Source: a virus (lineage: Duplodnaviria; Heunggongvirae; Uroviricota; Caudoviricetes). From it: DNA of 64,000 bases. The stretch covers positions 1 through 64,000 of the IMG/VR virus record IMGVR_UViG_3300003973_000001; one strand, written 5' to 3'. The stretch's first letter is position 1, and every line of letters begins with the position of its first letter. The notes below the pieces were generated by a model, which worked only from the letters and a program-made list of their open reading frames with translations, made no database searches and was not told where the DNA came from. Below are positions 850 through 60,247 of this stretch, piece after piece. Position numbers and translations under genes: made by a program.

Positions 850-868
850 TTAAACAAAAGTATTGCAC
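850..868 (+). promoter_or_regulatory. 19-bp conserved motif, class A (TTAAACAAAAGTATTGCAC); its TTGCAC followed 17 bp later by TATAAT (886-891)
   Basis: Exact-word repeat; see findings. Confidence 0.6.
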
Positions 869-896
869 AAAATAACAGGAAGAGGTATAATAACTT

Positions 897-1253
897 ATGA
901 AGACAAAAGCAGAACTTAAAAGAGAGCAGATTTTAACACGATTACGCAACCGAGGAGAGGTTGGAGCTACTAATGCAGAGCTTTCACACATCTCATTACG
1001 ATATGGTGCACATCTTGGAACACTGTATCAAATGGGTTACAAAATCGAGAAGGAATCTCTTGGAGAAGGTTTATACCGCTACATTTTAAAAGAAGAGCCA
1101 GAAGAAGGATTTGCTAAGATGCCAAAAGCATTAGAAGCTCTAAAGCAACATCTATTAGGACTTGGATATCCAGTTCTAACAAGCAACCTTGACTCTATTC
1201 TTGAAGATGTCGGCATTGCAGTAAAATACAAACCAAATACTTATAACAACTAA
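897..1253 (+). CDS. hypothetical protein
   Basis: ORF preceded by the 19-bp motif (850-868), a TATAAT at 886-891 and an RBS. Confidence 0.6.
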   Translation: MKTKAELKREQILTRLRNRGEVGATNAELSHISLRYGAHLGTLYQMGYKIEKESLGEGLYRYILKEEPEEGFAKMPKALEALKQHLLGLGYPVLTSNLDSILEDVGIAVKYKPNTYNN

Positions 1254-1269
1254 TCTGGAGGATGATAGT

Positions 1270-1548
1270 ATGAAACGCACTATGGATGATTTAACTAACT
1301 GTTTTAACGAAGCAAGTGAAGCAAATTCAAATTATGTATGTGTAGTAGTCAGTATGGCAGGTTTCCCAAAAGAAGAGGTTATTATTAACCAAAGAGAGAA
1401 CTTTGAAGCGAAGCTTAAATACTATCAAAACGTGTATGACAAAGGGTTAGACCACAAGCATGCCACAGGGGTTAAAATCATTGGATTCTCTCATGGCAAC
1501 ACATTTAATCAGATTCAAAAAGAGTTAGCTTTTAAAAACTTACTCTAA
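1270..1548 (+). CDS. hypothetical protein
   Basis: ORF with GGAGG RBS. Confidence 0.6.
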   Translation: MKRTMDDLTNCFNEASEANSNYVCVVVSMAGFPKEEVIINQRENFEAKLKYYQNVYDKGLDHKHATGVKIIGFSHGNTFNQIQKELAFKNLL

Positions 1549-1564
1549 AACAAAAGTATTGCAG
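1546..1564 (+). promoter_or_regulatory. 19-bp motif class A
   Basis: taaaacaaaagtattgcag overlapping the upstream stop codon; RBS follows directly. Confidence 0.55.
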
Positions 1565-1576
1565 AAGAGGTGTAAC

Positions 1577-1706
1577 ATGTTTTCAGCATTCGTACTTCTA
1601 GTGTTATTCATACTCCTTTTAACAGGGGTATGGTACACGCTAGGCAAATTAAACGTATTTGAGAAAATCGGAAACTTTATTTTAAATCTAAAAAATCTAT
1701 TTAACG
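1577..1706 (+). CDS. small hydrophobic membrane peptide (43 aa)
   Basis: AGAGGTG RBS then ATG. Translation MFSAFVLLVLFILLLTGVWYTLGKL... has a single TM segment. Lies immediately upstream of the SPFH gene. Confidence 0.35.
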
Positions 1707-1722
1707 AAAAGGAGTAATTATT

Positions 1723-2663: not shown

Positions 2664-2673
2664 GGTGATTATA

Positions 2674-4548: not shown

Positions 4549-4557
4549 GGGATAGAT

Positions 4558-9235: not shown

Positions 9236-10213
9236 TTACTTAACGTGTACGTATGAAGGACTTGCAGTAATGTAGAAATACTTACATCTGTACATCTTAG
9301 AACCGTTAACTGTTAATTCCTCAAGGATTGTAAATGCTTCGCCCTTCGGAACAGTTTTTTCTTTTGCATTCCAATCTGGAGCTGAGTAGACCCATAACTC
9401 TGGAGCATCTACTACAACTAATTTCCCTACATTGCTAGTTTGTCTACGTGCAAAACGAGTGTAGCTAGGGTCTCCATATATCCACTGGTCTCCACCAAGG
9501 TTTAGCCATCCATCCTTTTCTGCCCATACAACATAGTCTTCTGGAGAGTTTAAGTAGCGAATAAATTCTCCACTTGTGCTTGGAGACTTACGCAATTTAA
9601 TGTTAGTACCTTCGATATAAACGATACCTAAACCTTGCGTTCCTGCATCCCCACCGCCAGTTGGAGGAGCGATTGTGTTACCGCCACCAGAGCCATTGCT
9701 GCCTTGAACCATACTCTTGAATCCTTCGAATCCACCAGAACGATTTAAGATTGGTCGTGGGCAATATTTACCAGACCAACGTTGGTGAGGTACTACATTT
9801 CCAATGCCGATACCAGTCTGTCCCATTAAGAACTTAACTAATTTAGCACAGTTTGCTAATGCTTTCTCAAAGTTGCCATCTGAGTTTTCAGCAGTTTCGA
9901 TACCGATTGATTGGCGATTACCTGTTCCACTGCCACCATCTCCTGCATGCCAACCATTTTCATTAAGTGGTAAATGCTGAATGATACGTTTGTCATCTAC
10001 TGTAAAGTGCCAAGACACTCCTGCCGAACCGCCACCATTGTTAACAAAGTTAGAGTGAGCTAAAGCATCTGCTCCTTTGTCAGTGTTTTCAGTTGTATGA
10101 ACTGTAATGTACTTAGCTGTCATTGCATGTGCAGGACGATTACTATTACCCTTTGGAATTTCTCTAACTTCGAAAGGTACTCCACCAATGCTTGATACGT
10201 TTAAAAATGTCAT
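9236..10213 (-). CDS. endolysin: N-acetylmuramoyl-L-alanine amidase (Amidase_2/PGRP) with SH3b-like C-terminal binding domain
   Basis: Amidase_2 signature residues (H..H...E, CPRP) in the N-terminal 160 aa. C-terminal W/Y-rich SH3-like module. Confidence 0.85.
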   Translation of the reverse strand: MTFLNVSSIGGVPFEVREIPKGNSNRPAHAMTAKYITVHTTENTDKGADALAHSNFVNNGGGSAGVSWHFTVDDKRIIQHLPLNENGWHAGDGGSGTGNRQSIGIETAENSDGNFEKALANCAKLVKFLMGQTGIGIGNVVPHQRWSGKYCPRPILNRSGGFEGFKSMVQGSNGSGGGNTIAPPTGGGDAGTQGLGIVYIEGTNIKLRKSPSTSGEFIRYLNSPEDYVVWAEKDGWLNLGGDQWIYGDPSYTRFARRQTSNVGKLVVVDAPELWVYSAPDWNAKEKTVPKGEAFTILEELTVNGSKMYRCKYFYITASPSYVHVK

Positions 10214-10310: not shown

Positions 10311-10329
10311 CTGCAATACTTTTGTTTAA
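10311..10329 (-). promoter_or_regulatory. 19-bp motif class A (upstream of endolysin)
   Basis: Plus-strand ctgcaatacttttgtttaa. Confidence 0.55.
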
Positions 10330-13748: not shown

Positions 13749-13767
13749 CTGCAAATCTTTCGTTTAA
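13749..13767 (-). promoter_or_regulatory. 19-bp motif class B (TTAAACGAAAGATTTGCAG)
   Basis: Plus-strand ctgcaaatctttcgtttaa, 15 nt before the TTG start. Confidence 0.55.
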
Positions 13768-13826
13768 TAACCTCCATACGACACTACTTAAATGTCTACT
13801 ACCATGATATCATATATTGGAGGTTA

Positions 13827-13846
13827 TTGCAATACTTTTGTTTTAA
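13827..13846 (-). promoter_or_regulatory. 19-bp motif class A, directly after the stop of the upstream gene
   Basis: ttgcaatacttttgttttaa. Separated from the class-B copy by a 9-bp-stem hairpin (13776-13826). Confidence 0.55.
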
Positions 13847-18011: not shown

Positions 18012-18030
18012 CTGCAAATCTTTTGCTTAA
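18012..18030 (-). promoter_or_regulatory. 19-bp motif class B (upstream of the Dit-like gene)
   Basis: ctgcaaatcttttgcttaa; RBS begins immediately after. Confidence 0.55.
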
Positions 18031-25584: not shown

Positions 25585-25603
25585 CTGCAATACTTTAGTT
25601 TAA
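25585..25603 (-). promoter_or_regulatory. 19-bp motif class A variant (upstream of TMP)
   Basis: ctgcaatactttagtttaa. Confidence 0.5.
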
Positions 25604-27839: not shown

Positions 27840-27858
27840 TTGCAAATCTTTTGCTTAA
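27840..27858 (-). promoter_or_regulatory. 19-bp motif class B
   Basis: ttgcaaatcttttgcttaa upstream of 27173..27820. Confidence 0.55.
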
Positions 27859-27917: not shown

Positions 27918-27936
27918 CTGCAAATCTTTTGTTCAA
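27918..27936 (-). promoter_or_regulatory. 19-bp motif class B variant
   Basis: ctgcaaatcttttgttcaa. A terminator-like hairpin plus T-run (27860-27900) lies between the two copies. Confidence 0.5.
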
Positions 27937-32300: not shown

Positions 32301-35300
32301 TAACGTCATTAAGTCCATTCTTAAACATTGGGTCGCTGTATAAGACTTTCCCATTTAACCCTTGAGTTAATGTTCTCGACAACTCATTAATCTTTCTGAC
32401 TAATTGAGATTTTCTATCGTAGTAATCATCAAACTGCGCTCTAAACGTTGCACCAGTTACACTAGAAGTTGTCGTCATGTTTGTAAGTATTCCGCCACTT
32501 CCATTTAATGCTGTATTCAGAGTGTTGTACGCGTTAACGTAATTATTCTTTTCGGTAGTAACACCAAATCCATTCCCCAAAGCTTCGAATTGAGGCTTCT
32601 CGGCGACCATCACAGCCCATTCCTTTTTAAGCTGAACCTTTTCTACAGGAGTGATTTTGCTATCGCTAGACATATCTGCAATAGAGTTCTGAGCTGTTTG
32701 AGCTTTACTGTCCGCATTAGTACCAATCGTTCTAGCTAGTTCATTAATCTTTTTAACCAATTGTGACATCTTGTCGTAATAATCATCAAATGTATTTCTG
32801 AATGTCGCTCCGTTGATATCACTAGTCACTGTTGTATTAGCGATGATAGGAGTAACTGCTGTATTCAAAGTATTATAAGCATTGACATAGTTCGTTTTCT
32901 CAGTAGTAATTCCATAGATAGTAGCAAGTGCTTCATACTGTGGCTTTTCCGCTACGATTGTCGCCCATTCCTTTTTCAACTGTTGTTTTTCTAAAGGAGT
33001 AGCTTTATTGTCGTTTGACATATCGGCAATAGCACTTTGACTACTTTGAGCCTTTTTATCAACGTCAGCAACTAACTTATCGTAATCCTCTGGAGCTAAA
33101 GTGAAATCAGTTTTTCTGTTACCTTTTTCGAGTTTCATTCTCTTAACATAGAATTCTACTCCATTAGCAAGTGCTGTCGTATAGAAGATGACTGTTCCAT
33201 TTCCTACACCAGTCCCCTTGAATGTATGAGAATATTCTCTCCAAGTAGTGTCAACGTCTACTGTTTTAACGTCAATACTCTCTGCGCCAATGTGAAGCTT
33301 ATGATTTCCTGTACTAGCCTTCATCATTACGCTAACAGTGTACTCTTGGTCTTTCTCAAATACTTTAGTAGCAGAAGAACCGCCACCCAATCTCTGATAA
33401 ATACCTGCTCTTCCTGCTCCAGTGTTAGGAGTAAACTTGAAAGCCTTATCCTCTCCATCGTCTACAACTGCAGTTTGAGCCACGTTTGAATACCAGTTAG
33501 TAGCACCTTGAAGCAATCCTGCATTTAGGAATATGTTCCTACCACCGACAGACATGTTGTCGAGATTTCCTTGAACTCTGGCAATAGCCTCATCAATATC
33601 CTCTTGAGCCAAGCTGTAATCTGTAACTACGTTTCCTAGCTCACCTTTTACATTTCTTATTTTAAACGTAACAGGCGCACCGCTATTATTAACTAATCCA
33701 ATGTTAGATTGGTCGTATAAATCACTAGTGTAGTTATCCTTGTTCTTCCAAGTAAACCAACATTTAGTCCACGTATTAGCTTTTAAGCTTTTGCTAGAAG
33801 TCTGTCTCAATGCAGTATCGTCATTATCATTAGATGTGGACGTTCCAGTCACAGGGAAGTTATTTACATCAGCATTCCAAGTAGTATCGATAGGAGAATA
33901 AATCTCAAAGCTAACCGCGAACCAACTCCCAATAGGAACTACAGAAGTTTTATCGATTATTCTTACGCCTGCACCCCATGAACCACCTGCTCCACTATTA
34001 GCAGTTAAAGTCCAAGTATTTGTAGCTTCATCATATGATGAAGAGGTTACGTTTATAGGAGATATCTGTTTCTTTCTAACAATGTTTTTCGCACCGAATT
34101 GCATTCCATCGATTTTATCCTTAGCATCAGTACCTGCGTTAACTTTACCTTGCATAGCAGGGTCTAAGCTTTGGAATGTAACAGCTCCTGTGATATCAAG
34201 ATGTTTGCCAAGGATTTTAACACCTTCTGCACTAGCGTTGATAGAAGTTTTTACATTACCCTTCTTAACAACATTGATAGCAATCTCTTCAGCGGTTTGT
34301 TTAATTTGAGTTCCTTGAGATTCAACAGTTGTTTTCATACCGTCTACATCTTTTTTAACATCAGTAACAGTCTGTGAAATCCCCTTAGTAGTAACTTCGA
34401 TTTCTGATTTCAACTTAGTCGCAGATTCAGTAATCTTCCCATTTGCTTGCTCTATCGTATATACTTTATCAGCTTCAGCTTTAAGTGCAATACTTTTGTT
34501 TAATAATGTAATAGATGTATTATGCTCTTCAATAGCTGTTCCTTGTTGTGTAACAGACTTACTTAAATCCGTTACGGACTGCCTAATCTTTCCTGCGTCC
34601 TGTTCGATTGCTGTTGTTTTCTTTCCTAAATTATCTAATTCAGTTACGGTAAGTGAAATTTTATCATTCGCGACTTTAAGTGCGCCTTCTGCAACTTCGA
34701 CTCTTCCGTTTAGTTTGTCAACTTTTTCATCAGATGCCTTAAGTTCAATAGATTCGTCTAGTTGCTCTAATTTTGTTTGTTGTGTAGAGTATTTATCATT
34801 CAACTCATCAAAGTCTTTTTTCTCTACCGTATTAACTATCTTACCTTCTAAAATTTCAACGCTAGATTCCGCAGTCTCTAATCTATTAGAGTACTCATTA
34901 AATCTTTCCGTTTCTACTTTGGATTTAATAGCATCGCTTAATACCTCCATAGAAGATGATTGTGACTCCACTTTATTACCTAGCTCTGTCACTTCATCTT
35001 TTGTAGCCATAAGCTTAATACTATCTTCTGTCTGTTTGAGAGATGTTTCAGCCTCTCTTAGTCGAGCATCATTCTTGTCCCCAACGCCAATCACTGCAGT
35101 TAGCTTATCGACCTGCGTAGATAATTTAACGCCTAGATTCATAACTGGCGCTCCTGTGCGATTCCCATGGAGAATATCCACTGTATTCCATCCTGCATTA
35201 AATCCAAGAGCAACTTTAGTTCCAATAGTACTCATATGAGCATTTTCGTATATTTTAGCTCCATTCATATAGATGGTCAAACTATCTTCATGAACAACAT

Positions 35301-35988: not shown

Positions 35989-36073
35989 CTTATAGCATTC
36001 CTCCTTTTCGATATTTTACGTGGACGAAAGTCCCATATATTCATATATTCATTATAGCAGTCTGACAAAGTTA

Positions 36074-36092
36074 CTGCAATACTTTTGTTTAA
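36074..36092 (-). promoter_or_regulatory. 19-bp motif class A (upstream of the giant fibre); TTGCAG-17-TATAAT
   Basis: ctgcaatacttttgtttaa. On the gene strand TTGCAG is followed by 17 nt then TATAAT. Confidence 0.6.
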
Positions 36093-37131: not shown

Positions 37132-37150
37132 CTGCAAATCTTTTGCTTAA
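37132..37150 (-). promoter_or_regulatory. 19-bp motif class B (upstream of the major tail protein)
   Basis: ctgcaaatcttttgcttaa. Confidence 0.55.
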
Positions 37151-40574: not shown

Positions 40575-40593
40575 GTGCAATACTTTTGTTTAA
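40575..40593 (-). promoter_or_regulatory. 19-bp motif class A
   Basis: gtgcaatacttttgtttaa, 21 nt before ATG 40553. Confidence 0.55.
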
Positions 40594-40652
40594 ATATAGA
40601 GGGGCTGTATTGTTTAACCCCTCTATGATAGAATACCACAAACTTTCAAAGC

Positions 40653-40671
40653 CTGCAATACTTTTGTTTAA
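40653..40671 (-). promoter_or_regulatory. 19-bp motif class A, 2 nt after the MCP stop
   Basis: ctgcaatacttttgtttaa. Hairpin 40597-40625 lies between the two copies. Confidence 0.55.
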
Positions 40672-51191: not shown

Positions 51192-51275
51192 AATTTGATA
51201 TCTCCCTTTCTCTCTCATTCCATTATGAGATTTAATAAAATATTTGTTTTATTAGTTTTGTAATAATTTTGTTTG

Positions 51276-51346
51276 AGCCGAAGGTGGGAATCGAACCCAC
51301 TCTACCACCTTGCGATGATAAGCTTTCCATATACTTCTCTTTCGGC
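51276..51346 (-). pseudogene. tRNA-like element (71 nt) with a degenerate anticodon arm
   Basis: Acceptor GCCGAAA/CTTCGGC and T-arm GTGGG-TTCGATT-CCCAC are intact. No convincing D or anticodon stems. Confidence 0.35.
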
Positions 51347-51445
51347 ATAATAAGAAGCCCAAGCTAGGAGACTTGGGCAAATTTGAGATACAACGATTTA
51401 GGAGGCAATCATTAATTGCTAAGTTTTTAAATCCATTAACCACTT

Positions 51446-51464
51446 CTGCAAATCTTTTGCTTAG
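51446..51464 (-). promoter_or_regulatory. 19-bp motif class B variant (downstream of the sigma gene, upstream of the tRNA/HU unit)
   Basis: ctgcaaatcttttgcttag. Confidence 0.5.
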
Positions 51465-51525
51465 TGGCTTACACTATATATAGCAGTAGCCTCCAAAATA
51501 GTTCGTATCATTTCTCATATTTTTT

Positions 51526-52584
51526 TTATTTATTTTTGATGGCGATTTTATAAAGCTCTTTAACGTAGAATTCTGCTGACTTTTTAGCGATTCGTGTAAT
51601 CGTCTCTGAAACAGTATTCTTCTTGATTCCCAGTAATTCCTCTAGTTCTTCTTGTGCATATCCCTGTCTGAATAAGTCAACAATACTTTGCTCACGAACA
51701 GTCAGAACCATTCTATCTAGCATTCTATTGTAGTCATATATAATGATTCCTAATCCATCTTCATCCATCATATCTTCTCTATTAAGCATTCTGAGAAGCT
51801 CTTTGTTATTTACAATATCAGCGAAATCAATAACATCTAACTTGTTTGCCACACCCTCATCCTTAAGTAGATTCTTAAATTCGATAGGACGCTTGATAGC
51901 TTTCTTGATAGCAATCTGATTATCTTTCGCCTCGCGAATCCAACGAGTTACATAGCCTTTGACGTTTTTGCGAATCTTTAGGAGCTTCGCACGAGCCTCT
52001 TCTTCCATTATAATAGGAAGAGATGCGTCAATTCGATTTTCAATCATCTTCACAAACGAGTCGTCTCCTGCCTTTTCGACTAAGTCTTGCAGTCTGCCAA
52101 TCTCTACTATTTCTCTAATATCCTTAGAAAGTATACTCATACCCTTGACTAGCTTCTGATTTTTATCTTCATTAGAATAGAACATATCGAATACTTCTAC
52201 TTCTGAATTGCCATCTCCACTTTCAAATGCTGAAGCTACAACGTTCTCAGACTCTTTATATTGCTTGAACTCTCTCTCACTCTTCCAAAATCGGTACTCT
52301 ACCTTTCTGTTAGTGTCGATATCTTTTGCATTAAGAAGATATGTACCTAGCATCTCTAACGTTCGGCATACAGCATCCTGCTCAGCCATCCAACCTTGTT
52401 GCGTTGGGCTTACATCGTAATATTCACCAAAGTATGCAGAGAAGAATTCATGTACATTCCCTTCTCCATCACCAATCACTTCATTTATTACCTCTAATCT
52501 ATCATGAAACTTCTCAACTGAATAATCCTGCTGTTGGAAATCCACCAATTTTTTACCTGCAATTGAACTACTGAAGTACTTCAC
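51526..52584 (-). CDS. phage-encoded sigma-70-family sigma factor
   Basis: C-terminal region-4 HTH (QSIVDLFRQGYAQEELEELLGIKKNTVSETITRIAKK). 352 aa. Confidence 0.6.
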   Translation of the reverse strand: MKYFSSSIAGKKLVDFQQQDYSVEKFHDRLEVINEVIGDGEGNVHEFFSAYFGEYYDVSPTQQGWMAEQDAVCRTLEMLGTYLLNAKDIDTNRKVEYRFWKSEREFKQYKESENVVASAFESGDGNSEVEVFDMFYSNEDKNQKLVKGMSILSKDIREIVEIGRLQDLVEKAGDDSFVKMIENRIDASLPIIMEEEARAKLLKIRKNVKGYVTRWIREAKDNQIAIKKAIKRPIEFKNLLKDEGVANKLDVIDFADIVNNKELLRMLNREDMMDEDGLGIIIYDYNRMLDRMVLTVREQSIVDLFRQGYAQEELEELLGIKKNTVSETITRIAKKSAEFYVKELYKIAIKNK

Positions 52585-52789
52585 GTTTCATCTCTCCTTG
52601 TGCTTTTCTATATGTTTTCATCTTTGTAATAAATCTAGCTGTTGCTTGTAGTTGTTTTTCTCGCTCAATATCGTCATACATTTTATCTAGCTCTCCACTA
52701 AGATATAATTCATTCATCTCATCTGGTGACAATGTCCCTAGATAGTTCTCTAATGGTATGTATGAACCAAACTCTCTCATCATTTCCAT
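52568..52789 (-). CDS. hypothetical protein
   Basis: ORF overlapping the sigma start by 17 nt. Confidence 0.4.
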   Translation of the reverse strand: MEMMREFGSYIPLENYLGTLSPDEMNELYLSGELDKMYDDIEREKQLQATARFITKMKTYRKAQGEMKREVLQ

Positions 52790-52871
52790 ACTTTTGTTTA
52801 ACTCCTTTGTTTAAAATTCACCTTTGTTTTATTCGCCTTTGTGTGTACATTATATAACGTTTCTTTAATTT

Positions 52872-52890
52872 CTGCAATACTTTTGTTTAA
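52872..52890 (-). promoter_or_regulatory. 19-bp motif class A
   Basis: ctgcaatacttttgtttaa. Confidence 0.55.
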
Positions 52891-53822: not shown

Positions 53823-54593
53823 CTATTCCACCTCATTAATAGGATTGTTATTTCTATCTAATACTTGGATATAATGAGTCTCATTACTATAGCCCAGTTT
53901 ATCCATAGCATCTTGAATATAGATAAAAATTGATTTTGCACTATCCCCTACTCTCCAGTAGAAGTTGTGCGTCTTAGAAATGCTCTTGCCTTTAATTTGC
54001 TTCTTGGCTGTAAATCTCATCTTTCTAAAGTCAATGACACTGAGTTCATCTTTTAATATGTAGATGTACTTTGATACGGTTTTGTCACTAATGCCTGTTT
54101 CAAACTGAATTGTTCCTTGAGAAATCCAAGACACCTTGCAACTTGATTCGCTCTCGAATATAGGAGATACGATACTAGCATATACAGAGAATACTCCAAA
54201 CTTCTTCTTCTTATCCAACGTCATGAACTTCTTGATAATATCCACATCAAACATTGTGAAGTATCCACCCTTGTTAGGCTCTACCATTTTAATAAAGTAT
54301 AGTGTAGAAGGTCTCATCTTAGATGCCTCTATCCTGCACATTTCCGCTTGGTCTTCGTATACTTCAATAAATTGATGAACTTCTAGATTAGTAACGAATC
54401 CTTTCATCTTAGATTTATTTCTACTGTCCGAATGATTCATTCCCATCTGTTTGAGAAGATTTGTAATACTAACCGTTGCAGAGCCAGTTGGATTATTGGC
54501 TCGAATGACAGCGTATGTAAATTTCTCTTCTGATGTAATTACTTCGTGTTTAATTAGGGAGTCGCTAATTTTAATAAAGTTATTATTTTTCAA
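53823..54593 (-). CDS. hypothetical protein adjacent to the iteron region (possible DNA-binding/replication function)
   Basis: ORF. Motif copy 14 nt upstream. Confidence 0.5.
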   Translation of the reverse strand: MKNNNFIKISDSLIKHEVITSEEKFTYAVIRANNPTGSATVSITNLLKQMGMNHSDSRNKSKMKGFVTNLEVHQFIEVYEDQAEMCRIEASKMRPSTLYFIKMVEPNKGGYFTMFDVDIIKKFMTLDKKKKFGVFSVYASIVSPIFESESSCKVSWISQGTIQFETGISDKTVSKYIYILKDELSVIDFRKMRFTAKKQIKGKSISKTHNFYWRVGDSAKSIFIYIQDAMDKLGYSNETHYIQVLDRNNNPINEVE

Positions 54594-54613: not shown

Positions 54614-54632
54614 CTGCAATACTTTTATTTAA
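54614..54632 (-). promoter_or_regulatory. 19-bp motif class A variant
   Basis: ctgcaatacttttatttaa, 20 nt before the start of 53823..54593. Confidence 0.55.
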
Positions 54633-54649
54633 TGAAGTGTGTGAAAGTC

Positions 54650-54740
54650 GAAAGCGCCACTGCGCGCGACCACCCACTTATCTCTCTCTTCTTAATATGG
54701 TTCTTTTCTGCTTAAATGGTTCTCTTTTATTAGACCCCCA
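54650..54740. repeat. GC-rich segment (GCGCCACTGCGCGCGACCACCCAC...TTAGACCCCCA) duplicated at 54948-55016
   Basis: About 80-bp imperfect direct repeat preceding each iteron array. GC-rich, unlike the flanking AT-rich DNA. Confidence 0.5.
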
Positions 54741-54862
54741 GATTTACACCAATAGGGGGTGTGTATTTCCGTATACCTGTCGGAGATTTACACCCCCTAT
54801 TGGTGTAAAAATCCGTATACCCTCGGAGATATACACTAGCAGGGGGTGTAAATCTCCGTATA
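54741..54862. repeat. iteron array 1: at least 3 copies of a ~22-bp unit TATACGGAGATTTACACCCCCT (some as inverted pairs)
   Basis: Direct and inverted copies of GGTGTAAATCTCCGTAT / TACACCCCCTATTGGTGTA. Confidence 0.6.
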
Positions 54863-54903
54863 CTTTAACTCATGGATAAATTTTAACAGAGAATAAGAAA
54901 TAC

Positions 54904-54922
54904 TGCAATACTTTTGTTTAAA
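54904..54922 (-). promoter_or_regulatory. 19-bp motif class A heading the first iteron unit
   Basis: ctgcaatacttttgtttaa. Confidence 0.55.
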
Positions 54923-55016
54923 GGAATACGTTTCAGTAGTGGGAAAAGAGCGCCACCGCGCGACCCCACTACTATCTCTCTCTGCTTCGTCTGGTTCTCT
55001 TATTATTAGACCCCCA

Positions 55017-55094
55017 CATTTACACCCCCTAGTGGTGTAAATCTCCGTATGGTATGCGGAAATACGCACCCCTAGAGGGTGTAAATCTCCGTAT
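55017..55094. repeat. iteron array 2: 2-3 copies of the same unit
   Basis: atttacaccccctagtggtgtaaatctccgtat ... agagggtgtaaatctccgtat. Confidence 0.6.
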
Positions 55095-55132
55095 CAGTGA
55101 GATGTATAGAAATTTGGGTGAGTGATTTTTGC

Positions 55133-55165: not shown

Positions 55166-55410
55166 GAACCAGAAATTTATTGTCAGATTGAAGGGGATTC
55201 TGCTACAATGAATACAACAAACAAATCTTGAAAAAGCAAAAACGCCCTATCCTTTGTAAGTTTGGCGACCTGCAAGGATAAAGCGTTCGAAAGATAAAAC
55301 ATAGAATTCAGTTTTTTGTTACCTCAATAATATCATACATATAATATGTATGCAAAGGAATTCTATGATTTTTTCTTCCTGCTTTTTCTATAAAAATGGG
55401 GGAATTGAAT

Positions 55411-56445
55411 ATGGCTAGACCAGATGGTTATGATGTAGAAGGTTACATCCACTTTATTAAGAAGAGAGTAGATGGGACTCATTGGGTTGGCAAAGGAGAG
55501 AGTGCTAGAGAGATGCCTAATAAAGAAGCGTATGAAGTGCCTTTTGAATCTATCGAAAACTTAGACCTTAATAGGATTGGTAATGAGATTTCTTATCTTA
55601 ATAGCAATGTCTGGAATGTAGAAAGATATATGGCTTATTTCTGGAAGCAAATAATGGATGCTGATTCTATTTTCGTTTGGAAGCATCTGTGGGAATATGC
55701 AAATGAAGCAGAGAATATTGATATGTGTTATCCGAAAATGTCTGAATTGATGCAGAGATGCGGATTATCGAGACCCACCCTAATTGACAAGATAAAGAAA
55801 CTGGAAGAGAACAACTTCCTTATTCAAATACATAGATTAAACAAGAAGTCCGATAATAAAAAAGAAGACAGCCCATTATTCAAATTAAGAAGAACTATAC
55901 CTCTGCTGTCGAAAGAACAGGTTGAAAAGCTTACTCCTTTTATGAAGAAAAAGCATGACGATTACATGAATAAGTTTGCTAGTAAATCTAGTCTAGAATG
56001 GTTCTCTGCGAGCGGTAAAGAAACTGTTGATAATCTTATAGAGACTTCTGGAGACAGAATCGTATCTAGCAAGGCAAGACAGGAAATCAAGAATCTGCTA
56101 AAGAACGAGGAAGAAGAAGGTTATATAATTGTGAACCTCCCTCCTCATATGCAGGACACATTAAAAGATTCTAATTCACTACATGAGGCTCTTATGAAGA
56201 ACGGATTTAGTAAACCGTCAGTAGAATTGCTATTTGGAGACGTAATGTCTACATATGATAGTGAGACATCTACTGCACATATTATTACCAGAAAAAGTTC
56301 TCAGAAAGAGTATTATGAGAAAAATATGGAAGATAAGTATAAAGACATGCTATTCTCATCACTAATTGAAATGTACGATTCTGTTGGAGATATAAAGTAC
56401 TTCACTACAGAACAATATATAATTACAATTCTGAAGGGCAAATAA
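55411..56445 (+). CDS. winged-helix DNA-binding protein flanked by repeat arrays (replication initiator / origin-binding candidate)
   Basis: HTH-like segment PKMSELMQRCGLSRPTLIDKIKKLEENNFL. Iterons upstream, DnaA-box/palindrome array downstream. Start moved to ATG 55411 (GGGGGA RBS). Confidence 0.55.
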   Translation: MARPDGYDVEGYIHFIKKRVDGTHWVGKGESAREMPNKEAYEVPFESIENLDLNRIGNEISYLNSNVWNVERYMAYFWKQIMDADSIFVWKHLWEYANEAENIDMCYPKMSELMQRCGLSRPTLIDKIKKLEENNFLIQIHRLNKKSDNKKEDSPLFKLRRTIPLLSKEQVEKLTPFMKKKHDDYMNKFASKSSLEWFSASGKETVDNLIETSGDRIVSSKARQEIKNLLKNEEEEGYIIVNLPPHMQDTLKDSNSLHEALMKNGFSKPSVELLFGDVMSTYDSETSTAHIITRKSSQKEYYEKNMEDKYKDMLFSSLIEMYDSVGDIKYFTTEQYIITILKGK

Positions 56446-56493: not shown

Positions 56494-56720
56494 TTATCCG
56501 CCTAGTGTAAAGAAATTTTATACTATGATTTTCGCCTAGTATAAAGAAATTTTATACTATACCATAAAGAAATTTTATACTATAGTGTAAAGAAATTTTA
56601 CACTATAGAAACACTCACTTATCCCCAGATTCTGTGGATAACCTAGTATAAAGTTTTTTTATACTATAAAACCCTAGTGTAAAATTTCTTTATAGTCCCC
56701 CTAAAGAATCTTTACACCCT
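56494..56720. repeat. array of at least 6 palindromic 24-bp repeats (TAGTRTAAAGAAATTTTATACTAT) flanked by three DnaA-box-like 9-mers
   Basis: TTATCCGCC at 56494, TTATCCCCA at 56619, perfect TTATCCACA (complement) at 56634-56642. Each repeat is itself an inverted repeat TAGTATAAA/TTTATACTA. Confidence 0.6.
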
Positions 56721-56979: not shown

Positions 56980-56998
56980 TTAAACAAAAGTATTGCAA
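56980..56998 (+). promoter_or_regulatory. 19-bp motif class A (upstream of the antirepressor)
   Basis: ttaaacaaaagtattgcaa. Confidence 0.55.
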
Positions 56999-57053
56999 AG
57001 ATATAGGGTTATGGTGTAGTATGAAAACAACAACAAAACACAGGAGGTTCTAT

Positions 57054-57818
57054 ATGGACAAATTACAAGTATTCAACAATGACGAACTCGGACAGGTTCG
57101 AACGGTTACTATCGGAGAGGAAGCTTGGTTCGTAGCGAAAGATGTTTGCGATGTCTTATCAATCGGCAATATTACAAAAACGATTTCGCGACTGGATGAA
57201 GATGAGTTTACTACTAGTAAAGTCACCGATTCTACAGGAAGAAACCAAGATACATTCGTTGTAAACGAAAGTGGTCTTTACTCTATTATTATGACTAGTC
57301 GTAAACCGCAGGCAAAAGTATTTAAGAAGTGGGTTACATCAGAAGTGTTGCCGATGATTCGCAAAACTGGCGGTTACGTAAATAACGATGAGATATTCGT
57401 TAATACATATCTGGCTCATGCGGATGAAATGACAAAGACATTATTTAAATCAACATTAGAAACGGTGCGTAAGCAAAACGAAAAGATTGCTGTACTAGAA
57501 CCGAAAGCCGAATATCACGACAATGTACTTGATAGCAAAAACTCATTTACAATCACAGAGATTGCTAATGACTTGGGAATGACAGCTCGTAAATTGAACT
57601 CCCTACTACACCAATTAGGAGTGCAGAGAAAAGTTGGGGCAACATGGGTGTTGTACGCGGAACATCAGAATAAAGGCTACATCGATACAAAGACTTATGT
57701 ATATGATGGCGGTAACGAAGGATTCCAAACAGCCATGCATACACGATGGACTCAGAAAGGTCGCAAGTTCATTATTGATTTAATGACTGAGATGGGTCTT
57801 CAAAAAACATTTTACTAA
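57054..57818 (+). CDS. antirepressor (Bro-N N-terminal domain + KilA-C/ANT C-terminal domain)
   Basis: Bro-N-like LQVFNNDELGQVRTV...WFVAKDVCDVL...ESGLYSIIM...KVFKKWVTSEVLP. C-terminal TITEIANDLGMTARKLNSLL. AGGAGG RBS before ATG 57054. Confidence 0.75.
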   Translation: MDKLQVFNNDELGQVRTVTIGEEAWFVAKDVCDVLSIGNITKTISRLDEDEFTTSKVTDSTGRNQDTFVVNESGLYSIIMTSRKPQAKVFKKWVTSEVLPMIRKTGGYVNNDEIFVNTYLAHADEMTKTLFKSTLETVRKQNEKIAVLEPKAEYHDNVLDSKNSFTITEIANDLGMTARKLNSLLHQLGVQRKVGATWVLYAEHQNKGYIDTKTYVYDGGNEGFQTAMHTRWTQKGRKFIIDLMTEMGLQKTFY

Positions 57819-57833
57819 ACAAAAGTATTGCAG
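57815..57833 (+). promoter_or_regulatory. 19-bp motif class A overlapping the antirepressor stop (upstream of the helicase)
   Basis: ctaaacaaaagtattgcag. Confidence 0.55.
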
Positions 57834-57885
57834 AAAATGTGACGATGTGTTAGTATAACATTAACGATAACTAGGAGGAATCATT

Positions 57886-59850
57886 ATGAAATTAACAACA
57901 GAACAACAATTGGCAGTAGATACTATTGACGGAAACGTTTGTACAATCGCGAGTGCAGGCTCTGGAAAAACTAGCGCCTTCACTACTCGTATTGCGAACA
58001 TGGTAAACAATCACTATATCAATCCTACATGTATTCTAGGAATCACGTTTACGAAGAAGGCATCCGAGGAAATGCAGAAGCGACTTGCCAAGCTTATTGG
58101 TAAGGAAACAGCAAAGAAGGTCGTGCTTAGTACATTCCACAGCATCGCTTACCGATTACTAAAGGTTTTAGATTCAGAGTTTGATAAATTACAAATTGCC
58201 CCAGATTGGTGGAAGATGTCGCGCCTTAACGACTTGTGTAAGCCTCGCGATGAGCGAAACCATTTAGGTATGAATCTAGGAATCAAGGCAGGCGAACTTG
58301 CCCAGTTTATTTCTTACCAGAAAGCGAATATGGTGAAGCCGACTGACAATCTCATTATCAATGAGCAAGTCGAATTTGTAGACGGAGTGTCAGAACCACT
58401 TCTCAGAGAGGCATACGCCACGTATGAGCGACTTAAAACAGAATCTAGACAAGTAGACTTCGATGACATGTTATTGCGATTCTACGAGAAACTGAGAGAC
58501 GACAGCGTATTCCGTTCTCGCATTGCTAAACAGTATCAGTACATCATGATAGACGAATACCAAGATACTTCAACTATCGTGCTTGAAATTGTTAAGCTTA
58601 TCAACTCTCGAAACGTATTCGTAGTTGGCGATTTCCGCCAATCCATCTATGCATTCATCAATGCGAATGTTGAGAATATCCTTAACTTCAAAGATGAATT
58701 TGAGAATGTTAAGCTAATTGAATTGAACAAAAATTTCCGCTCAACGCAGAATATTGTTCACCTATCAAACAAAATTATTGAAAACAGTTCGATTGAAAAA
58801 TACAAGCAATTCAAGCCATCCGAGAGTGTTGGCGAAGTTGGAGATAAAGTTAAGTTTTCTCTATACCAAGACGAAGGAAAACAGATTCTTGGAATCGCTA
58901 ATCAGATTCAAGATTTAGTAGATGGCGGTATGCCATATAAGGAGATTGCTATTCTAGTTCGCGCAAATGCGGATACAGCAATCATTGAGGAAGTACTGGC
59001 AGATAAGGATATTCCTTACGATGTATCCAAATCCCTATCCTTCTTCGACAGAAAGGAAATCTTAGATTTACTAAGCTACGGAAGACTTGTAGTAGATAGC
59101 GAAGACGACAGCAGTTTCCGCAGAATCATCAATTCACCGAATCGATATTTAGGAAAGCAGTTTGTCGAGGAACTGGAGCGATTTGCAGGTTCGCACGATA
59201 TGAACTTAATGCAGGCGCTACGCGTAACTCCTCAGAATGGTGAGTGGAAATTCAAGCGAGGAATCGATAACTTCACTAAGATTATTAGCGATTTGCACTA
59301 TCAATCTAATTCTAGTACGAATGCAGGGCGATTCCTTCGCAATGTAATTAAAGCGACTCGCTACATTGAGTTTGTGAATGAGACGACTCCTAACGCATCT
59401 TCTATTGATGAGAAATTGGAATCTATCGAAAAGCTTTGCACTATGGCTTCTAAATTCCCTAATATCAAAGCGTTCTTGGCTCACGTTTCTACCATTAAAG
59501 ACAAACAAGCGAAGTCTAAAGGTAAAGATGCGGTGCAGGTAATGACTAGCCATGCATCTAAAGGATTGGAATTTGACGCGGTATTCGTTCCGAATGCTAA
59601 TGAAGGGCTTATTCCTCACAAGATGAATCCAGACGAGGAAGAAGAGCGAAGACTGTTTTACGTATCATGTTCTCGCCCTCGTAAGCACCTATATATCAGT
59701 TGGTTCTTTTACGATGCCGAAGCCATGCTTCAAAATGAGAGTATCTTCGTACAGGAATTGCTTGGAGAAGATACGATTCTAGAAATGAAGAAAGACCTCT
59801 TCCGAGGCAAATCGGAGACCCATGTGTGGTATCCTTCAAAAACTAGCTAA
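57886..59850 (+). CDS. UvrD/PcrA-like superfamily-1 DNA helicase
   Basis: Walker A AGSGKT. Motif II DEYQD. 654 aa. Confidence 0.8.
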   Translation: MKLTTEQQLAVDTIDGNVCTIASAGSGKTSAFTTRIANMVNNHYINPTCILGITFTKKASEEMQKRLAKLIGKETAKKVVLSTFHSIAYRLLKVLDSEFDKLQIAPDWWKMSRLNDLCKPRDERNHLGMNLGIKAGELAQFISYQKANMVKPTDNLIINEQVEFVDGVSEPLLREAYATYERLKTESRQVDFDDMLLRFYEKLRDDSVFRSRIAKQYQYIMIDEYQDTSTIVLEIVKLINSRNVFVVGDFRQSIYAFINANVENILNFKDEFENVKLIELNKNFRSTQNIVHLSNKIIENSSIEKYKQFKPSESVGEVGDKVKFSLYQDEGKQILGIANQIQDLVDGGMPYKEIAILVRANADTAIIEEVLADKDIPYDVSKSLSFFDRKEILDLLSYGRLVVDSEDDSSFRRIINSPNRYLGKQFVEELERFAGSHDMNLMQALRVTPQNGEWKFKRGIDNFTKIISDLHYQSNSSTNAGRFLRNVIKATRYIEFVNETTPNASSIDEKLESIEKLCTMASKFPNIKAFLAHVSTIKDKQAKSKGKDAVQVMTSHASKGLEFDAVFVPNANEGLIPHKMNPDEEEERRLFYVSCSRPRKHLYISWFFYDAEAMLQNESIFVQELLGEDTILEMKKDLFRGKSETHVWYPSKTS

Positions 59851-59866
59851 AACAAAAGTATTGCAC
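59847..59866 (+). promoter_or_regulatory. 19-bp motif class A overlapping the helicase stop
   Basis: ctaaaacaaaagtattgcac. Confidence 0.55.
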
Positions 59867-59883
59867 AAGAAAAGGAGAATCGC

Positions 59884-60130
59884 TATGAAAATTATTCCAG
59901 TGTTAGCGCCAAGCTACCAAGAGTTCAGATATTTTGTTCAAGACAATCAATTGAAGTTTCAGCAATTTGCTTATATCACAACGGAAGATAACCTTAGAGG
60001 ATATGGCGGTATCGTCATAGTTCTACCTAATTGGAAGAGAAATGATAAGTATGACGTAAACTTCAGACGTAGGCTGATTGAAATGGAAGTATTAAAACAT
60101 ATCTTTTTATCGAGACATGTAGAAATCTAG
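59884..60130 (+). CDS. hypothetical protein
   Basis: AAGGAGA RBS then ATG 59884. The track start at 59822 lies inside the upstream gene/motif. Confidence 0.5.
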
Positions 60131-60196
60131 GGAGGTGTGGGCAATTCGCCCTCCCCTGTCCTTCAATACTTTTGCTCTATAAATCTCTATTTTTTG

Positions 60197-60247
60197 GACG
60201 AAAGTATTGCGAGGCATTTTATACAATTAAACTAAACTATTGCGAGG
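60197..60247 (+). promoter_or_regulatory. two degenerate tandem motif copies (GACGAAAGTATTGCGAGG and AAACTAAACTATTGCGAGG)
   Basis: Upstream of 60257..60520. Confidence 0.35.

Follow-up and report, generated by a model that had tools for sequence, protein, structure and literature searches.

The window, by which we mean the whole 64,000-nt stretch of DNA analysed (positions 1 to 64,000 of the IMG/VR record IMGVR_UViG_3300003973_000001), is part of an SPbeta-like Bacillus phage or phage-plasmid. It contains a 19-bp repeat in two sequence classes, A and B, which is real and strongly conserved. The search of the window, allowing up to 3 mismatches, returned 20 class A and 11 class B matches that partly overlapped. 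Merging these gave 21 strong copies (15 class A and 6 class B), where 0.07 were expected (0.07-0.09 from shuffled sequence), in agreement with the original prediction of about 20 copies in two classes. Degenerate copies were identified at 52783, 51258, 60227, 60161, 58765 and 3723.

All 21 strong copies were co-oriented with their flanking genes (p ~ 1e-6), as predicted for the downstream gene, and 60 of the 62 copies in the related plasmid pSR52 were co-oriented with transcription. Using a deliberately crude ORF mask, 16/21 copies were intergenic (binomial p = 1.6e-11), and 20/21 were intergenic by inspection. Contrary to the original claim, the element is not strictly intergenic, since the copy at 34485 lies in frame inside a gene encoding 2216 amino acids. 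The distance from motif to start codon was 10-98 nt (first given as 10-95 nt), but overlap with the preceding stop codon, described as frequent, was present at only three copies (1546, 57815 and 59848). Of three called ORF starts thought to fall inside the element, 25590 and 40580 do so, on its own TTG, but 59822 lies upstream of it. The likely true starts replacing these over-long calls are GTG 25563, ATG 40553 and ATG 59885, respectively.

The copies occur in two main contexts. Approximately 40% form the upstream half of an ordinary promoter (P-type), and approximately 40% lie directly before a ribosome-binding site (R-type). The element precedes early/replication, late structural and immunity-operon genes alike, and the putative immunity operon of relatives also contains copies. 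The plasmid-maintenance, toxin-antitoxin and MerR genes of pSR52 carry no copies. The features of the window are as follows (SD, Shine-Dalgarno sequence):

850..891, plus strand: P-type, class A; 19-mer 850-868, 17-bp spacer, −10 box TATAAT 886-891; upstream of gene 897-1253
1546..1564, plus strand: R-type, class A; overlaps the stop codon of 1270-1548; SD AAGAGG adjoins; ATG 12 nt past the motif
10311..10329, minus strand: other type, class A; 98 nt separate it from the endolysin gene 9236-10213 downstream; a long hairpin follows; no −10 box
13749..13767, minus strand: R-type, class B; immediately followed by the SD and by the TTG that starts the tail-fibre gene 13041-13733
13804..13845, minus strand: P-type, class A; motif 13827-13845, TG-extended −10 box TATCAT 13804-13809; upstream member of a 78-bp tandem pair
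18012..18030, minus strand: R-type, class B; follows the hairpin behind the tape-measure gene; ATG of 16902-17996 15 nt past the motif
25585..25603, minus strand: R-type, class A; before the tape-measure gene; likely start GTG 25563, called TTG 25590 inside the motif
27840..27858, minus strand: R-type, class B; followed by SD AAGGAGG; ATG of 27173-27820 19 nt past the motif
27918..27936, minus strand: class B; precedes 27840 by 78 bp; its −10 box (TGGTAT) is weak and overlaps a terminator-like hairpin
34485..34503, minus strand: intragenic, class A (18/19 bases); in frame within gene 29338-35988 (tail/adsorption, 2216 aa); may be a weak internal promoter (TGaTAAAGT, 16-bp spacer)
36051..36092, minus strand: P-type, class A; motif 36074-36092, TGcTATAAT with −10 hexamer 36051-36056; predicted promoter of the 2216-aa gene
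37132..37150, minus strand: class B; 37 nt upstream of the GTG start of the virion structural gene 36336-37094; no properly spaced −10 box
40575..40593, minus strand: R-type, class A; follows a 5' leader hairpin; then SD and ATG 40553, 21 nt past the motif
40630..40671, minus strand: P-type, class A; motif 40653-40671, TGgTATTCT with −10 hexamer 40630-40635; upstream member of a 78-bp tandem pair
51446..51464, minus strand: class B; lies 10 nt past a conserved TGcTATATA box, in the gap that separates the HU gene from the sigma-like gene
51526..52584, minus strand: gene for a 352-aa "sigma-like" protein with a C-terminal LuxR/sigma-4-type helix-turn-helix
52783-52801: degenerate copy, 89 bp downstream of the P-type copy 52872
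52849..52890, minus strand: P-type, class A; motif 52872-52890, −10 box TATAAT 52849-52854; predicted promoter of a small ORF and the sigma-like gene
54614..54632, minus strand: R-type, class A variant; follows a GC hairpin; then SD GAAGGAG and conserved TTG start 54593
54880..54921, minus strand: P-type, class A; motif 54903-54921, TGtTAAAAT with −10 hexamer 54880-54885; in a divergent control region
56980..57022, plus strand: P-type, class A; motif 56980-56998, −10 box TAGTAT after 18 bp; predicted promoter of the antirepressor-like gene 57021-57818
57815..57856, plus strand: P-type, class A; motif 57815-57833, TGtTAGTAT; overlaps the stop codon of 57021-57818; predicted promoter of the UvrD-like helicase gene
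59848..59866, plus strand: R-type, class A; overlaps the helicase stop codon; then SD AAGGAG and ATG 59885, 18 nt past the motif

Class B copies were said to sit mostly in front of tail genes, and four of the six stand before genes for tail or virion components: the tail fibre gene 13041-13733, the gene directly behind the tape-measure gene, 27173-27820 and gene 36336-37094 for a virion structural protein. P-type and R-type copies favour different bases at positions 11-13. The class difference seen in the window generalises to pSR52, where position 11 is preferentially G in promoter-type copies and T in those abutting an SD (Fisher p = 0.006).

In eight window copies, the motif provides an A-tract and a −35 hexamer (TTGCAx) 17-18 bp upstream of a −10 box, with a TG extension in five. 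The original prediction had recognised a −10 box at only two copies (850 and 36074). A perfect TATAAT is also present at 52872, and the remaining boxes are imperfect (TATCAT at 13827, TATTCT at 40653, TAAAAT at 54903, and TAGTAT at 56980 and 57815); the description as an UP-element plus the −35 of a sigma-A-type promoter holds, and for more copies than first seen. Among 124 non-redundant copies from the phage family, 23 had at least a 5/6 match to TATAAT at exactly the 17-bp spacer, compared with 0-4 at each of the other offsets from 5 to 39, and 15 of these 23 carried the TG extension. The exact phasing shows that the hexamer works as a −35 element. Some relatives carry the canonical TTGACA, solely in promoter contexts. 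With a 4-5/6 match at −35, the 17-bp spacer and the TG-extended −10 box, the P-type copies look like sigma-A promoters that would be strong and constitutive.

Eight or nine window copies lack a −10 box and directly abut an SD. No −10-like signal was found at any fixed distance from the R-type copies, and they therefore cannot be sigma-70-family promoters. In R-type copies, 0-8 nt separate the motif from the SD, and the start codon lies 9-24 nt past the motif in 40/67 non-promoter copies, a tight placement that hints at a role in the mRNA 5' leader or in translation. In tandem pairs, the R copy lies approximately 30-50 nt into the predicted transcript, behind a 5' hairpin. At 51446, the motif is the loop of a hairpin, and the stem shows covariation among relatives, which suggests that the motif is read at the RNA level too. 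A 5'-leader or processing signal, the alternative first offered, is a live rival for the SD-abutting copies, but leaves the promoter-embedded copies without an account. The element might instead have a dual use, with P-type copies as promoter halves and R-type copies as an unstructured mRNA leader 5' of the SD, bound or cleaved by a phage RNA-acting protein that controls translation, processing or stability, in the manner of the start-associated sequences of Cluster K mycobacteriophages. The SD and start-codon spacing, the tandem arrangement, the displayed loop at 51446 and the differing base preferences at positions 11-13 would all fit. However, one sequence would then have two unrelated functions although both contexts switch variant together in each lineage, and for several copies (10311 and 37132) the start codon is 37-98 nt away. 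Upstream hairpins were not commoner at R-type than at P-type copies (26% vs 21%, p = 0.38), no Rfam family matched and no candidate RNA-binding protein was identified. We consider the dual use unlikely.

Some R-type copies lie directly behind hairpins that could terminate upstream transcription. This, together with the high conservation and strict orientation of the 19-bp element, the purine right after the motif in most copies and the adjoining SD or 5' hairpin, would suit a complete non-canonical promoter without a −10 box, at which transcription starts just past the 19-mer. The R-type copies, perhaps all copies, would then resemble the promoters of single-subunit RNA polymerases and be driven by an unrecognised phage enzyme or factor. 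We regard this as very unlikely: the 17-bp phasing shows a −35 role, and the RNA hairpin at 51446 includes sequence upstream of the motif, so the transcript there starts before it. Furthermore, tblastn searches of the window, the related loci and pSR52 found no homologue of YonO, the late-gene RNA polymerase of SPbeta, and no RNA polymerase is named in the annotation of pSR52.

Compared with a 90%-identical relative, the motif was 97.7% identical (297/304) and its flanks 87-89%. The 16-bp core was nearly invariant across relatives just 67-72% identical in DNA, with C6, G11 and T12 near-invariant, and purifying selection acts on the motif. R-type copies were kept at orthologous junctions across relatives of 67-90% identity, such as that before the tape-measure gene (site 25585 is also present in L171, approximately 70% identical). 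In other lineages, all copies had changed in concert (GT to CC or TT; TTGCAA to TTGAAA), even within B. cereus-group hosts, and P-type and R-type copies switched together. The window, the UViG relative and contigs from B. subtilis, Viridibacillus and B. paranthracis carried the form AAAAGTATTGCAA, and two B. cereus-group contigs carried AAAACCATTGAAA. B. gaemokensis had AAAACCATTGCAA, B. wiedmannii pSR52 had both AAAAGTATTGAAA and AAAATTATTGAAA, and L254 had AAAATTATTGCA. As several of these hosts are members of a single group, the B. cereus group, the switches cannot be explained by host RNA polymerase alone, and a phage-encoded reader of the motif is implied by the sequences.

These observations already disfavour the view that the element is merely an optimal UP-element and −35 module for host RNA polymerase, with no phage factor and with the R-type copies as decayed promoters or chance by-products. 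The proximal UP subsite has the consensus AAAAAARNR, which AAACAAAAG matches at 8/9 positions when TTGCAx is taken as the −35, and strong Bacillus phage promoters have a similar A-tract-GT-TTGAC architecture. However, the concerted switching within phages of one host group, the near-invariant C6, G11 and T12, not required of an A/T-rich UP element, and the retention of R-type copies at orthologous positions make this view highly improbable.

The phage sigma factor first named as the reader is the product of 51526-52584, whose "sigma" label rests on PHROG annotation. Pfam (GerE, E = 0.007), profile comparison with the PDB and AlphaFold/Foldseek detected a C-terminal LuxR/GerE/sigma-4-type helix-turn-helix only, and no sigma region 2. 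This protein, or another activator, could bind the 19-mer at −35 and direct or activate host RNA polymerase; the element would then mark phage-specific promoters, with copies lacking a −10 box as secondary binding sites. The gene occupies the position held by yonO in SPbeta, its type of helix-turn-helix is the kind that reads −35-type sequences, and the hexamer departs from TTGACA lineage by lineage. The L247 gene is nearer to the L252 gene (80%) than to the L250 gene (75%), which runs counter to the genome-wide trend; TTGAAA is common to L247 and L252, and this is a weak hint in favour of this protein. However, the recognition helix varies freely among genomes with an identical motif (NTVSETITRIAKK, SNLNNTLNRIADK, QNVNTYVSRIVKK and ASVRKMEYRISEK), and conversely P0040 and P0049 share a helix but differ at motif positions 11-12. 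Approximately 40% of the copies lack a −10 element at any fixed distance, the P-type copies are near-consensus for sigma-A and should need no activator, and the element precedes early, late and immunity-region genes. The sigma-like protein is thus a poorly supported candidate, its helix not tracking the motif and region 2 not being detected, and we view this reading as somewhat unlikely.

We tentatively prefer the reading, which may well prove wrong, that the 19-mer is an operator or "stoperator"-like site for a sequence-specific phage DNA-binding regulator, most likely the lysogeny (lytic-cycle) repressor. A temperate element needs its strong P-type promoters repressed, and the 19-mer is the sole sequence they have in common, which favours a repressor site. 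The site would be superimposed on the upstream half of the promoter, the A-tract/proximal UP subsite and the −35 hexamer. At P-type copies, binding of the protein would mask the −35/UP region; at R-type copies, we infer that it would block elongation, as an orientation-specific barrier to read-through transcription, and might cooperate with the promoter copy approximately 78 bp upstream. Approximately 20 sites in the window, and approximately 60 in a complete relative, would together silence the entire lytic programme while the element persists as a prophage or plasmid. Some copies (51446 in the window, L180:5650) closely follow a −10 box, which is a classical operator position.

The candidate reader is an MrpR-like protein whose gene lies outside the window. 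The phage family has a conserved gene module of the MrpR family (pSR52, UViG L180, L210), and the window holds no candidate repressor gene. The MrpR-like gene of the UViG relative has a promoter with the TTGCAA hexamer only and not the 19-mer. Covariation of the motif variants with a particular protein was looked for and none was established. The immunity-operon copies of relatives require a repressor to be assumed to autoregulate. The 9-24 nt spacing to the start codon is not required of a roadblock.

The element resembles the stoperators of mycobacteriophage L5 and the SPBRE of SPbeta. Repressors of the L5 type bind over 20 asymmetric 13-mers, which lie in promoters and short intergenic spaces, with orientation tied to transcription and lineage-specific motifs (PMC9283540, PMC6550527). 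The SPbeta MrpR binds the repeated SPBRE (PMC10516654). MrpR of SPbeta has only approximately 10 sites and none in late genes, so that a network of 60 sites would be an extrapolation. The SPBRE was found in the same two contexts as the 19-mer, inside TAGACA-17-TATAAT promoters and directly abutting SDs.

At up to three mismatches, the class A 19-mer (TTAAACAAAAGTATTGCAG) gave 20 matches in the window and the class B version (TTAAGCAAAAGATTTGCAG) gave 11, where shuffled sequences predicted 0.07-0.09. Merging left 21 strong copies (15 of class A and six of class B), with a few degenerate ones besides. Under a deliberately crude ORF mask, 16 of the 21 were non-coding against 12% expected (p = 1.6e-11), which agrees with the enrichment between genes in the original prediction. 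The stricter wording, that the element occurs only in intergenic DNA, held on inspection for 20 of the 21, the exception being the copy at 34485, in frame within the gene of a 2216-aa tail protein. All 21 were co-oriented with their neighbouring genes, as had been claimed (plus strand at 850-1546 and 56980-59848, minus strand from 10311 to 54903). The frequent overlap with a preceding stop codon was found for three copies only and not for the rest.

Strong copies of the 19-mer in the window, with strand and context (P-type, forming the UP/-35 half of a sigma-A-type promoter; R-type, without a -10 element and mostly abutting the SD)
850 (+), P-type
1546 (+), R-type
10311 (-), neither type, 98 nt before the endolysin gene and followed by a hairpin
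13749 (-), R-type
13827 (-), P-type
18012 (-), R-type
25585 (-), R-type
27840 (-), R-type
27918 (-), neither type
34485 (-), intragenic
36074 (-), P-type
37132 (-), added to the R-type copies (37 nt)
40575 (-), R-type
40653 (-), P-type
51446 (-), neither type
52872 (-), P-type
54614 (-), R-type
54903 (-), P-type
56980 (+), P-type
57815 (+), P-type
59848 (+), R-type

The 21 comprise eight promoter copies, eight or nine intergenic or leader copies without a -10 element, and four others (three intergenic, one intragenic). The intragenic copy (34485-34503, minus strand) matches at 18 of 19 positions, is read in frame in the tail/adsorption gene (..LLNKSIAL..) and is followed at a 16-bp spacer by TGaTAAAGT; it may serve as a promoter within the gene, or the match may arise by chance from coiled-coil coding sequence. 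Degenerate copies on both strands, in two orientations, cluster at 60130-60260, the sole place in the window with a copy facing against the neighbouring genes. They include a minus-strand copy at 60161, which is followed by a GC hairpin and kept in the related locus L255, and plus-strand copies at ~60205 and 60227.

The called ORF starts at 25590 and 40580 are probably wrong, as suspected: the longest-ORF start is in each case the TTG of the 19-mer itself, and better, SD-preceded starts are present at GTG 25563 and ATG 40553, respectively. The suspicion about the called start at 59822 was borne out in part, with a better start at ATG 59885. The 19-mer is a reliable marker of operon and gene starts, with at least three ORF starts corrected in the window, and marks promoters in a large uncharacterised Bacillus phage-plasmid family.

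The surroundings of the element were analysed in 124 non-redundant copies from the window and its relatives. Motif positions 3-18 were conserved at 93-100%; the search core comprised positions 4-18 with at most two mismatches allowed, so that their conservation is partly built in, and positions 1-3, outside the core, were likewise conserved. The pooled downstream signal (T34 G35, T37 A38 n n A41 T42) is a TG-extended -10 box exactly 17 bp past the hexamer at positions 14-19. A match of at least 5/6 to TATAAT occurred at the 17-bp spacer in 23 of the 124 copies, 15 of them with the TG extension, and in 0-4 copies at every other offset. The canonical TTGACA hexamer was present in a few copies, exclusively in the P-type promoter context. 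With TTGCAx as the -35 element, AAACAAAAG spans -46 to -38, and it matches the consensus of the proximal UP subsite at eight of nine positions. Eight window copies have -35-like and -10 hexamers 16-18 bp apart, as in a sigma-A promoter. A generic sigma-70 consensus scan returned 48 sites against 58.7 expected and was uninformative, as it misses TTGCAG-type hexamers.

Thirty-nine R-type copies showed a purine-rich SD signal at +1 to +10 only and no information at +17 to +22, and thus lack the -10 element at a fixed distance that a sigma-A promoter has. Their SD begins 0-8 nt past the motif, and a start codon follows 9-24 nt past the motif in 40 of 67 non-promoter copies. Upstream hairpins do not define this type (26% compared with 21% at P-type copies, p = 0.38), and -10 boxes were not enriched at any fixed distance upstream of the motif, save at the spacing of tandem pairs. 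In these recurrent pairs a P copy is followed by an R copy 75-102 bp further on; the window pairs (13827/13749, 27918/27840 and 40653/40575) are all spaced by exactly 78 bp, and many more are found in relatives. A resemblance to sigma-54 -24/-12 elements (AAACAA-N5-TTGCA) was dismissed, since the GG is absent, the start would fall in the SD and no sigma-54-like protein was found.

Other arrangements were observed in relatives. Upstream of the sigma-like gene, four loci (L231:3008-3046, L248:9098-9136, L249:9730 and L251:9728) carry two abutting copies, the second mutated to ...TTGCTATAAT and supplying the -10 box of the first. Inverted copies, back to back or overlapping at a palindromic TTGCAA/TTGAAA, are present at L246:4255-4290, L247:6094-6131, L248:5441-5478 and position 118087 of plasmid pSR52; several relatives keep this pair, which lies between the helicase and initiator genes, and the window lacks it. 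At L180:12039-12080, the spacer of a P-type promoter contains a perfect Bacillus SOS (LexA/DinR) box, AGAACAAACGTTCT.

A nucleotide search of INPHARED found no relative of the window except at the tRNA genes. The window terminase is 47% identical to SPbeta YonF, and homologues of YonG, YonN (HU) and the tape-measure protein are present. Pfam, PHROGs and tblastn further identified genes for an endolysin, a tail fibre, a large tail/adsorption protein, a UvrD-type helicase, an antirepressor, a replication initiator, an Alp7A-type actin and a tyrosine recombinase, and 13 tRNA genes lie at 48.7-50.7 kb. The recombinase gene (25613-26644, minus strand; 80% identical to that of pSR52) lies within the tail module and immediately precedes the tape-measure gene, a position like that of yomM in SPbeta. 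Just downstream of the replication-initiator-like gene (55396-56445), five direct repeats of AAGAAATTTTA... at 56508-56690, spaced by 23-34 bp with one larger gap, are probably origin iterons.

The closest relative is a 126-kb IMG/VR contig, ~90% identical to the window. Remoter relatives (DNA 67-72% identical, or sigma-like protein 43-65% identical) are 115-145 kb contigs from the B. cereus group, B. subtilis, Viridibacillus and Peribacillus. The complete circular 137.6-kb plasmid pSR52 of B. wiedmannii (NZ_CP032366.1) carries plasmid genes for replication and partition alongside phage genes for structure and lysis; this gene mix, together with the relatives, indicates a family of SPbeta-like phage-plasmids or prophages. 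Five IMG/VR loci with one exact 19-mer each (L001, L004, L007, L008 and L013) share the same apparently coding sequence and were set aside as chance matches. A contig scan with the degenerate 18-mer gave single chance-like matches in unrelated taxa and no extra relatives, and one with sigma-like peptide patterns found nothing.

Throughout pSR52, 62 copies were found, 60 of them co-oriented with transcription, preceding structural, lysis, replication and nucleotide-metabolism genes; there were none at the genes for the partition actin, RepA-type initiator, MerR-type regulator or MazF toxin-antitoxin. At motif position 11, P-type copies of pSR52 had 15 G and 3 T, and R-type copies 6 G and 12 T (Fisher p = 0.006). 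In the window, class A accounts for the promoter copies and class B for about half of the R-type ones. As the two splits run in parallel, the division into two sequence classes made in the original prediction is real and general. A second start-associated repeat in pSR52, GAATTGGAGAGATTA, includes the SD (61607, 102250, 104784, 105806, 106302 and 108517); it belongs to a small-gene block at 101-108.5 kb, in which one copy of the 19-mer was found.

Between the window and its 90%-identical relative, the motif was identical at 297 of 304 positions, compared with 87-89% in the flanks; the bases of the -35/-10 spacer change freely and the -10 boxes persist. In ~70%-identical relatives, R-type copies occupy the same gene junctions, for example before the tape-measure and tail-fibre genes. 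The decisive comparative result is that each lineage has its own version of the motif, uniform over all copies of a genome, P-type and R-type alike. Six lineage-specific variants were found.

Lineage-specific versions of the motif
..AAAAGTATTGCAA, window lineage and contigs from B. subtilis, Viridibacillus and B. paranthracis
..AAAACCATTGAAA, two B. cereus-group contigs
..AAAACCATTGCAA, B. gaemokensis
..AAAAGTATTGAAA and ..AAAATTATTGAAA, pSR52
..AAAATTATTGCA, related locus L254
TTAATnnAAAGTATTGCAA, Peribacillus

Since several of the variant hosts fall within a single species group, neither host RNA polymerase nor host ribosomes can account for the switches, and the pattern implies a phage-encoded, sequence-specific reader that co-evolves with its sites. 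The same comparison bears on one alternative, a plain host UP/-35 module. P-type copies do resemble sigma-A promoters in the A-tract from -46 to -38, the TTGCAx, TTGAAA or TTGACA at -35, the 17-bp spacer and the TGnTAnnnT; they differ in that the upstream half is conserved far past the needs of RNA polymerase, ~40% of copies have no -10 element, and the motif follows the phage lineage rather than the host. We regard this alternative as highly improbable. The natural variants (GT, CC or TT at positions 11-12; C or A at 17) already provide a series of specificities, with which one could identify the reader and follow how immunity specificity evolves.

The original prediction had proposed a phage sigma factor, the 352-aa protein encoded at 51526-52584 (minus strand), as the reader. 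This protein matches PHROG 5767 'sigma factor' (1e-36) and, at ~25% identity, proteins of Staphylococcus 6ec/SEP9-type phages. Its C-terminal LuxR/GerE/sigma-4 helix-turn-helix alone was supported (Pfam, a 14-sequence profile against the PDB, and AlphaFold with Foldseek); the AlphaFold model was of moderate quality (pLDDT 69, pTM 0.33), with no significant whole-fold match, and whole-model matches to sigma-28 and sigma-E had E > 1. The proposal fared poorly, as the recognition helix does not covary with the motif: helices differ widely among genomes with an identical motif, and two homologues (P0040 and P0049) have identical helices and different bases at motif positions 11-12. A weak hint in its favour is that the L247 and L252 proteins, both from genomes with TTGAAA, are closer than the genome-wide trend predicts, a grouping that would suit the sigma-like protein as reader. 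That the 19-mer is a -35 element for this protein or another activator seems unlikely.

No YonO homologue was detected by tblastn in the window, the related loci or pSR52, and the syntenic slot of YonO, just upstream of the HU gene, is occupied by the sigma-like gene. The -10-less copies might be imagined as a new kind of initiation or loading site, recognised by the sigma-4/LuxR-like protein whose gene replaces that of YonO in this family, at which host RNA polymerase would start, or become termination-resistant, immediately upstream of genes. We consider this very improbable; if true, a single 19-bp signal would act as an ordinary -35 region and also as a signal for starting or loading without a -10 element. 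A separate rival, -10-independent initiation just downstream of the motif, is very improbable too.

A putative small RNA lies between the sigma-like and HU genes (~51258-51484, minus strand). Its elements are a TGcTATATA(G)TGTAAG box, which is conserved; a 5' hairpin with the 19-mer in its loop, the stem of which covaries in L177, L231 and L246-L254; an intrinsic terminator (51357-51378); and a minihelix resembling a tRNA acceptor/T-arm (GGTTCGATTCCCACC), after which comes a degenerate 19-mer. Neither ARAGORN nor Rfam called it; with Rfam only the 13 tRNAs reached the gathering score in the window, and nothing was significant at 51150-51560. SPbeta has an unannotated ncRNA at the start of its YonO-dependent late operon (PMC5467207).

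Two neighbouring regulators were considered as readers. The MerR-like protein is excluded, being 97-98% identical among genomes with different motif variants. The HTH_36-like protein (window 53823-54593) is hypervariable, with 27-35% identity among relatives, and the palindromes of the divergent region differ between the window and L254, the two genomes read; it is thus a likelier reader of the palindromes than of the 19-mer. In the window, a ~290-bp module made of five such palindromes of ~40 bp (CGGAGATTTACACCCCC..GGGGGTGTAAATCTCCG) is duplicated in tandem at 54633-55100 (minus strand), adjacent to the gene of the HTH_36-like protein, each module ending with a GC hairpin and T-run and then a 19-mer copy. 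At this place L254 has different palindromes. The duplication probably represents either an array of operators or a structured RNA in the divergent control region.

Relatives also encode a YopP-like/146-aa/MrpR-like module, the last protein matching PF22822/PF22823 in Pfam under the name 'phage lytic cycle repressor MrpR family'. It was found in L180 of the 90% relative (44% identical to the MrpR-like protein of pSR52, E = 2e-84), in L210 and in pSR52. No match to an MrpR-family gene was obtained within the 64-kb window, and the window phage's gene is presumably located outside it. The MrpR-like gene of the 90% relative has the promoter TTGCAA-17-TACAAT, with no other part of the 19-mer. Few genomes with an assigned motif variant yielded an MrpR-like sequence.

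The element itself is well established and well conserved and lends itself to experiment; what reads it, and how it acts, we infer. A DNA-binding regulator would read an asymmetric site over the UP/-35 half of phage promoters, and also at promoterless positions between genes. By analogy with known systems, an operator/stoperator-type repressor may be tentatively put forward as the best-supported single mechanism. The promoters look constitutive for sigma-A, yet the prophage or plasmid persists, which makes a repressor the most economical reader. Counting against a repressor are the R-type copies tight against the SD, the copies within the immunity operon of relatives, and the motif at 51446, which forms the loop of a hairpin with a covarying stem. 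With ~60 oriented sites, possibly read by an MrpR-family repressor of recombinase origin, a genome-wide operator/stoperator network would, if confirmed, have no described precedent in a Firmicute phage-plasmid, judging by the searched literature. Such a network would also account for the silence of dozens of strong host-type promoters in an SPbeta-like element that has no YonO gene.

A literature search for the motif sequence returned nothing relevant, and comparison was made with known systems by kind. In the phage-plasmid P1, the C1 repressor controls separate operons through dispersed, asymmetric 17-bp operators. The lifestyle and the many dispersed asymmetric sites are shared with the 19-mer; the P1 operators are promoter-associated, are not known to have an SD-abutting class, and differ in both proteins and sequences.

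The start-associated sequences (SAS) of Cluster K mycobacteriophages contain the ribosome-binding site itself and are not known to be part of promoters. They are short, conserved, multi-copy motifs just upstream of translation starts, with function unproven (PMC3203893). The 19-mer is similarly gene-oriented and multi-copy, and lies immediately 5' of starts; a position immediately upstream of many start codons was found for R-type copies only. Unlike SAS, it precedes the SD and also serves as a -35 region. A dual use, in which R-type copies would act in the mRNA leader in the manner of SAS, is quite unlikely.

The gp71-type stoperators of L5 and other Cluster A mycobacteriophages are asymmetric 13-bp sites that are lineage-specific and whose orientation follows transcription (PMC9283540, PMC6550527). 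The layout of the 19-mer matches this system feature by feature: a short asymmetric site (13 bp there, 16-19 bp here), 20-60 copies per genome (21 in the window and 62 in pSR52), placement in promoters, overlapping the -35 element, and in short intergenic gaps, orientation tied to transcription (21/21 in the window, 60/62 in pSR52), a motif that varies by lineage, and a temperate host element. In such networks the immunity repressor binds the sites and halts elongation depending on orientation, with each motif suited to its own repressor; the 19-mer would be predicted to work likewise. The two differ in host phylum and phage lineage, in the tightness of the non-promoter 19-mer copies against the SD, and in copy number, which is ~2x here.

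In SPbeta, MrpR (YopR) binds the repeated SPBRE and maintains lysogeny (PMC10516654). The lineage is related (terminase 47% identical, YonG/YonD/YonB/HU synteny kept), SPBRE is likewise an oriented intergenic repeat, and the window's relatives encode an MrpR-family protein. SPBRE copies, derived from the SPbeta sequence as ..ACAAAtACAAAaAATATGTATATA, occur in the same two contexts as the 19-mer, namely within TAGACA-17-TATAAT promoters (yonP, yorZ and yorE) and directly abutting SDs (yopM, yopV and the second yonX copy). The sequences are unrelated ((ACAAAtACAAAa)AATATGTATATA compared with TTAAACAAAAGTATTGCAG), and the 19-mer was absent from the scanned 50 kb of SPbeta (L014, record positions 22001-72000). 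SPBRE lies over the spacer and -10 box, whereas the 19-mer lies over the UP region and -35. SPbeta has ~10-12 SPBRE copies in early regions only, with YonO transcribing the late genes; the 19-mer precedes late genes too, in a lineage in which no YonO homologue was found. SPBRE/MrpR and the stoperators are thus the known kinds that the 19-mer resembles, and relative to both the distinguishing features are its sequence, its UP/-35 position, the ~60 copies per genome, the coverage of late genes without a YonO gene, and the SD-abutting sub-class.
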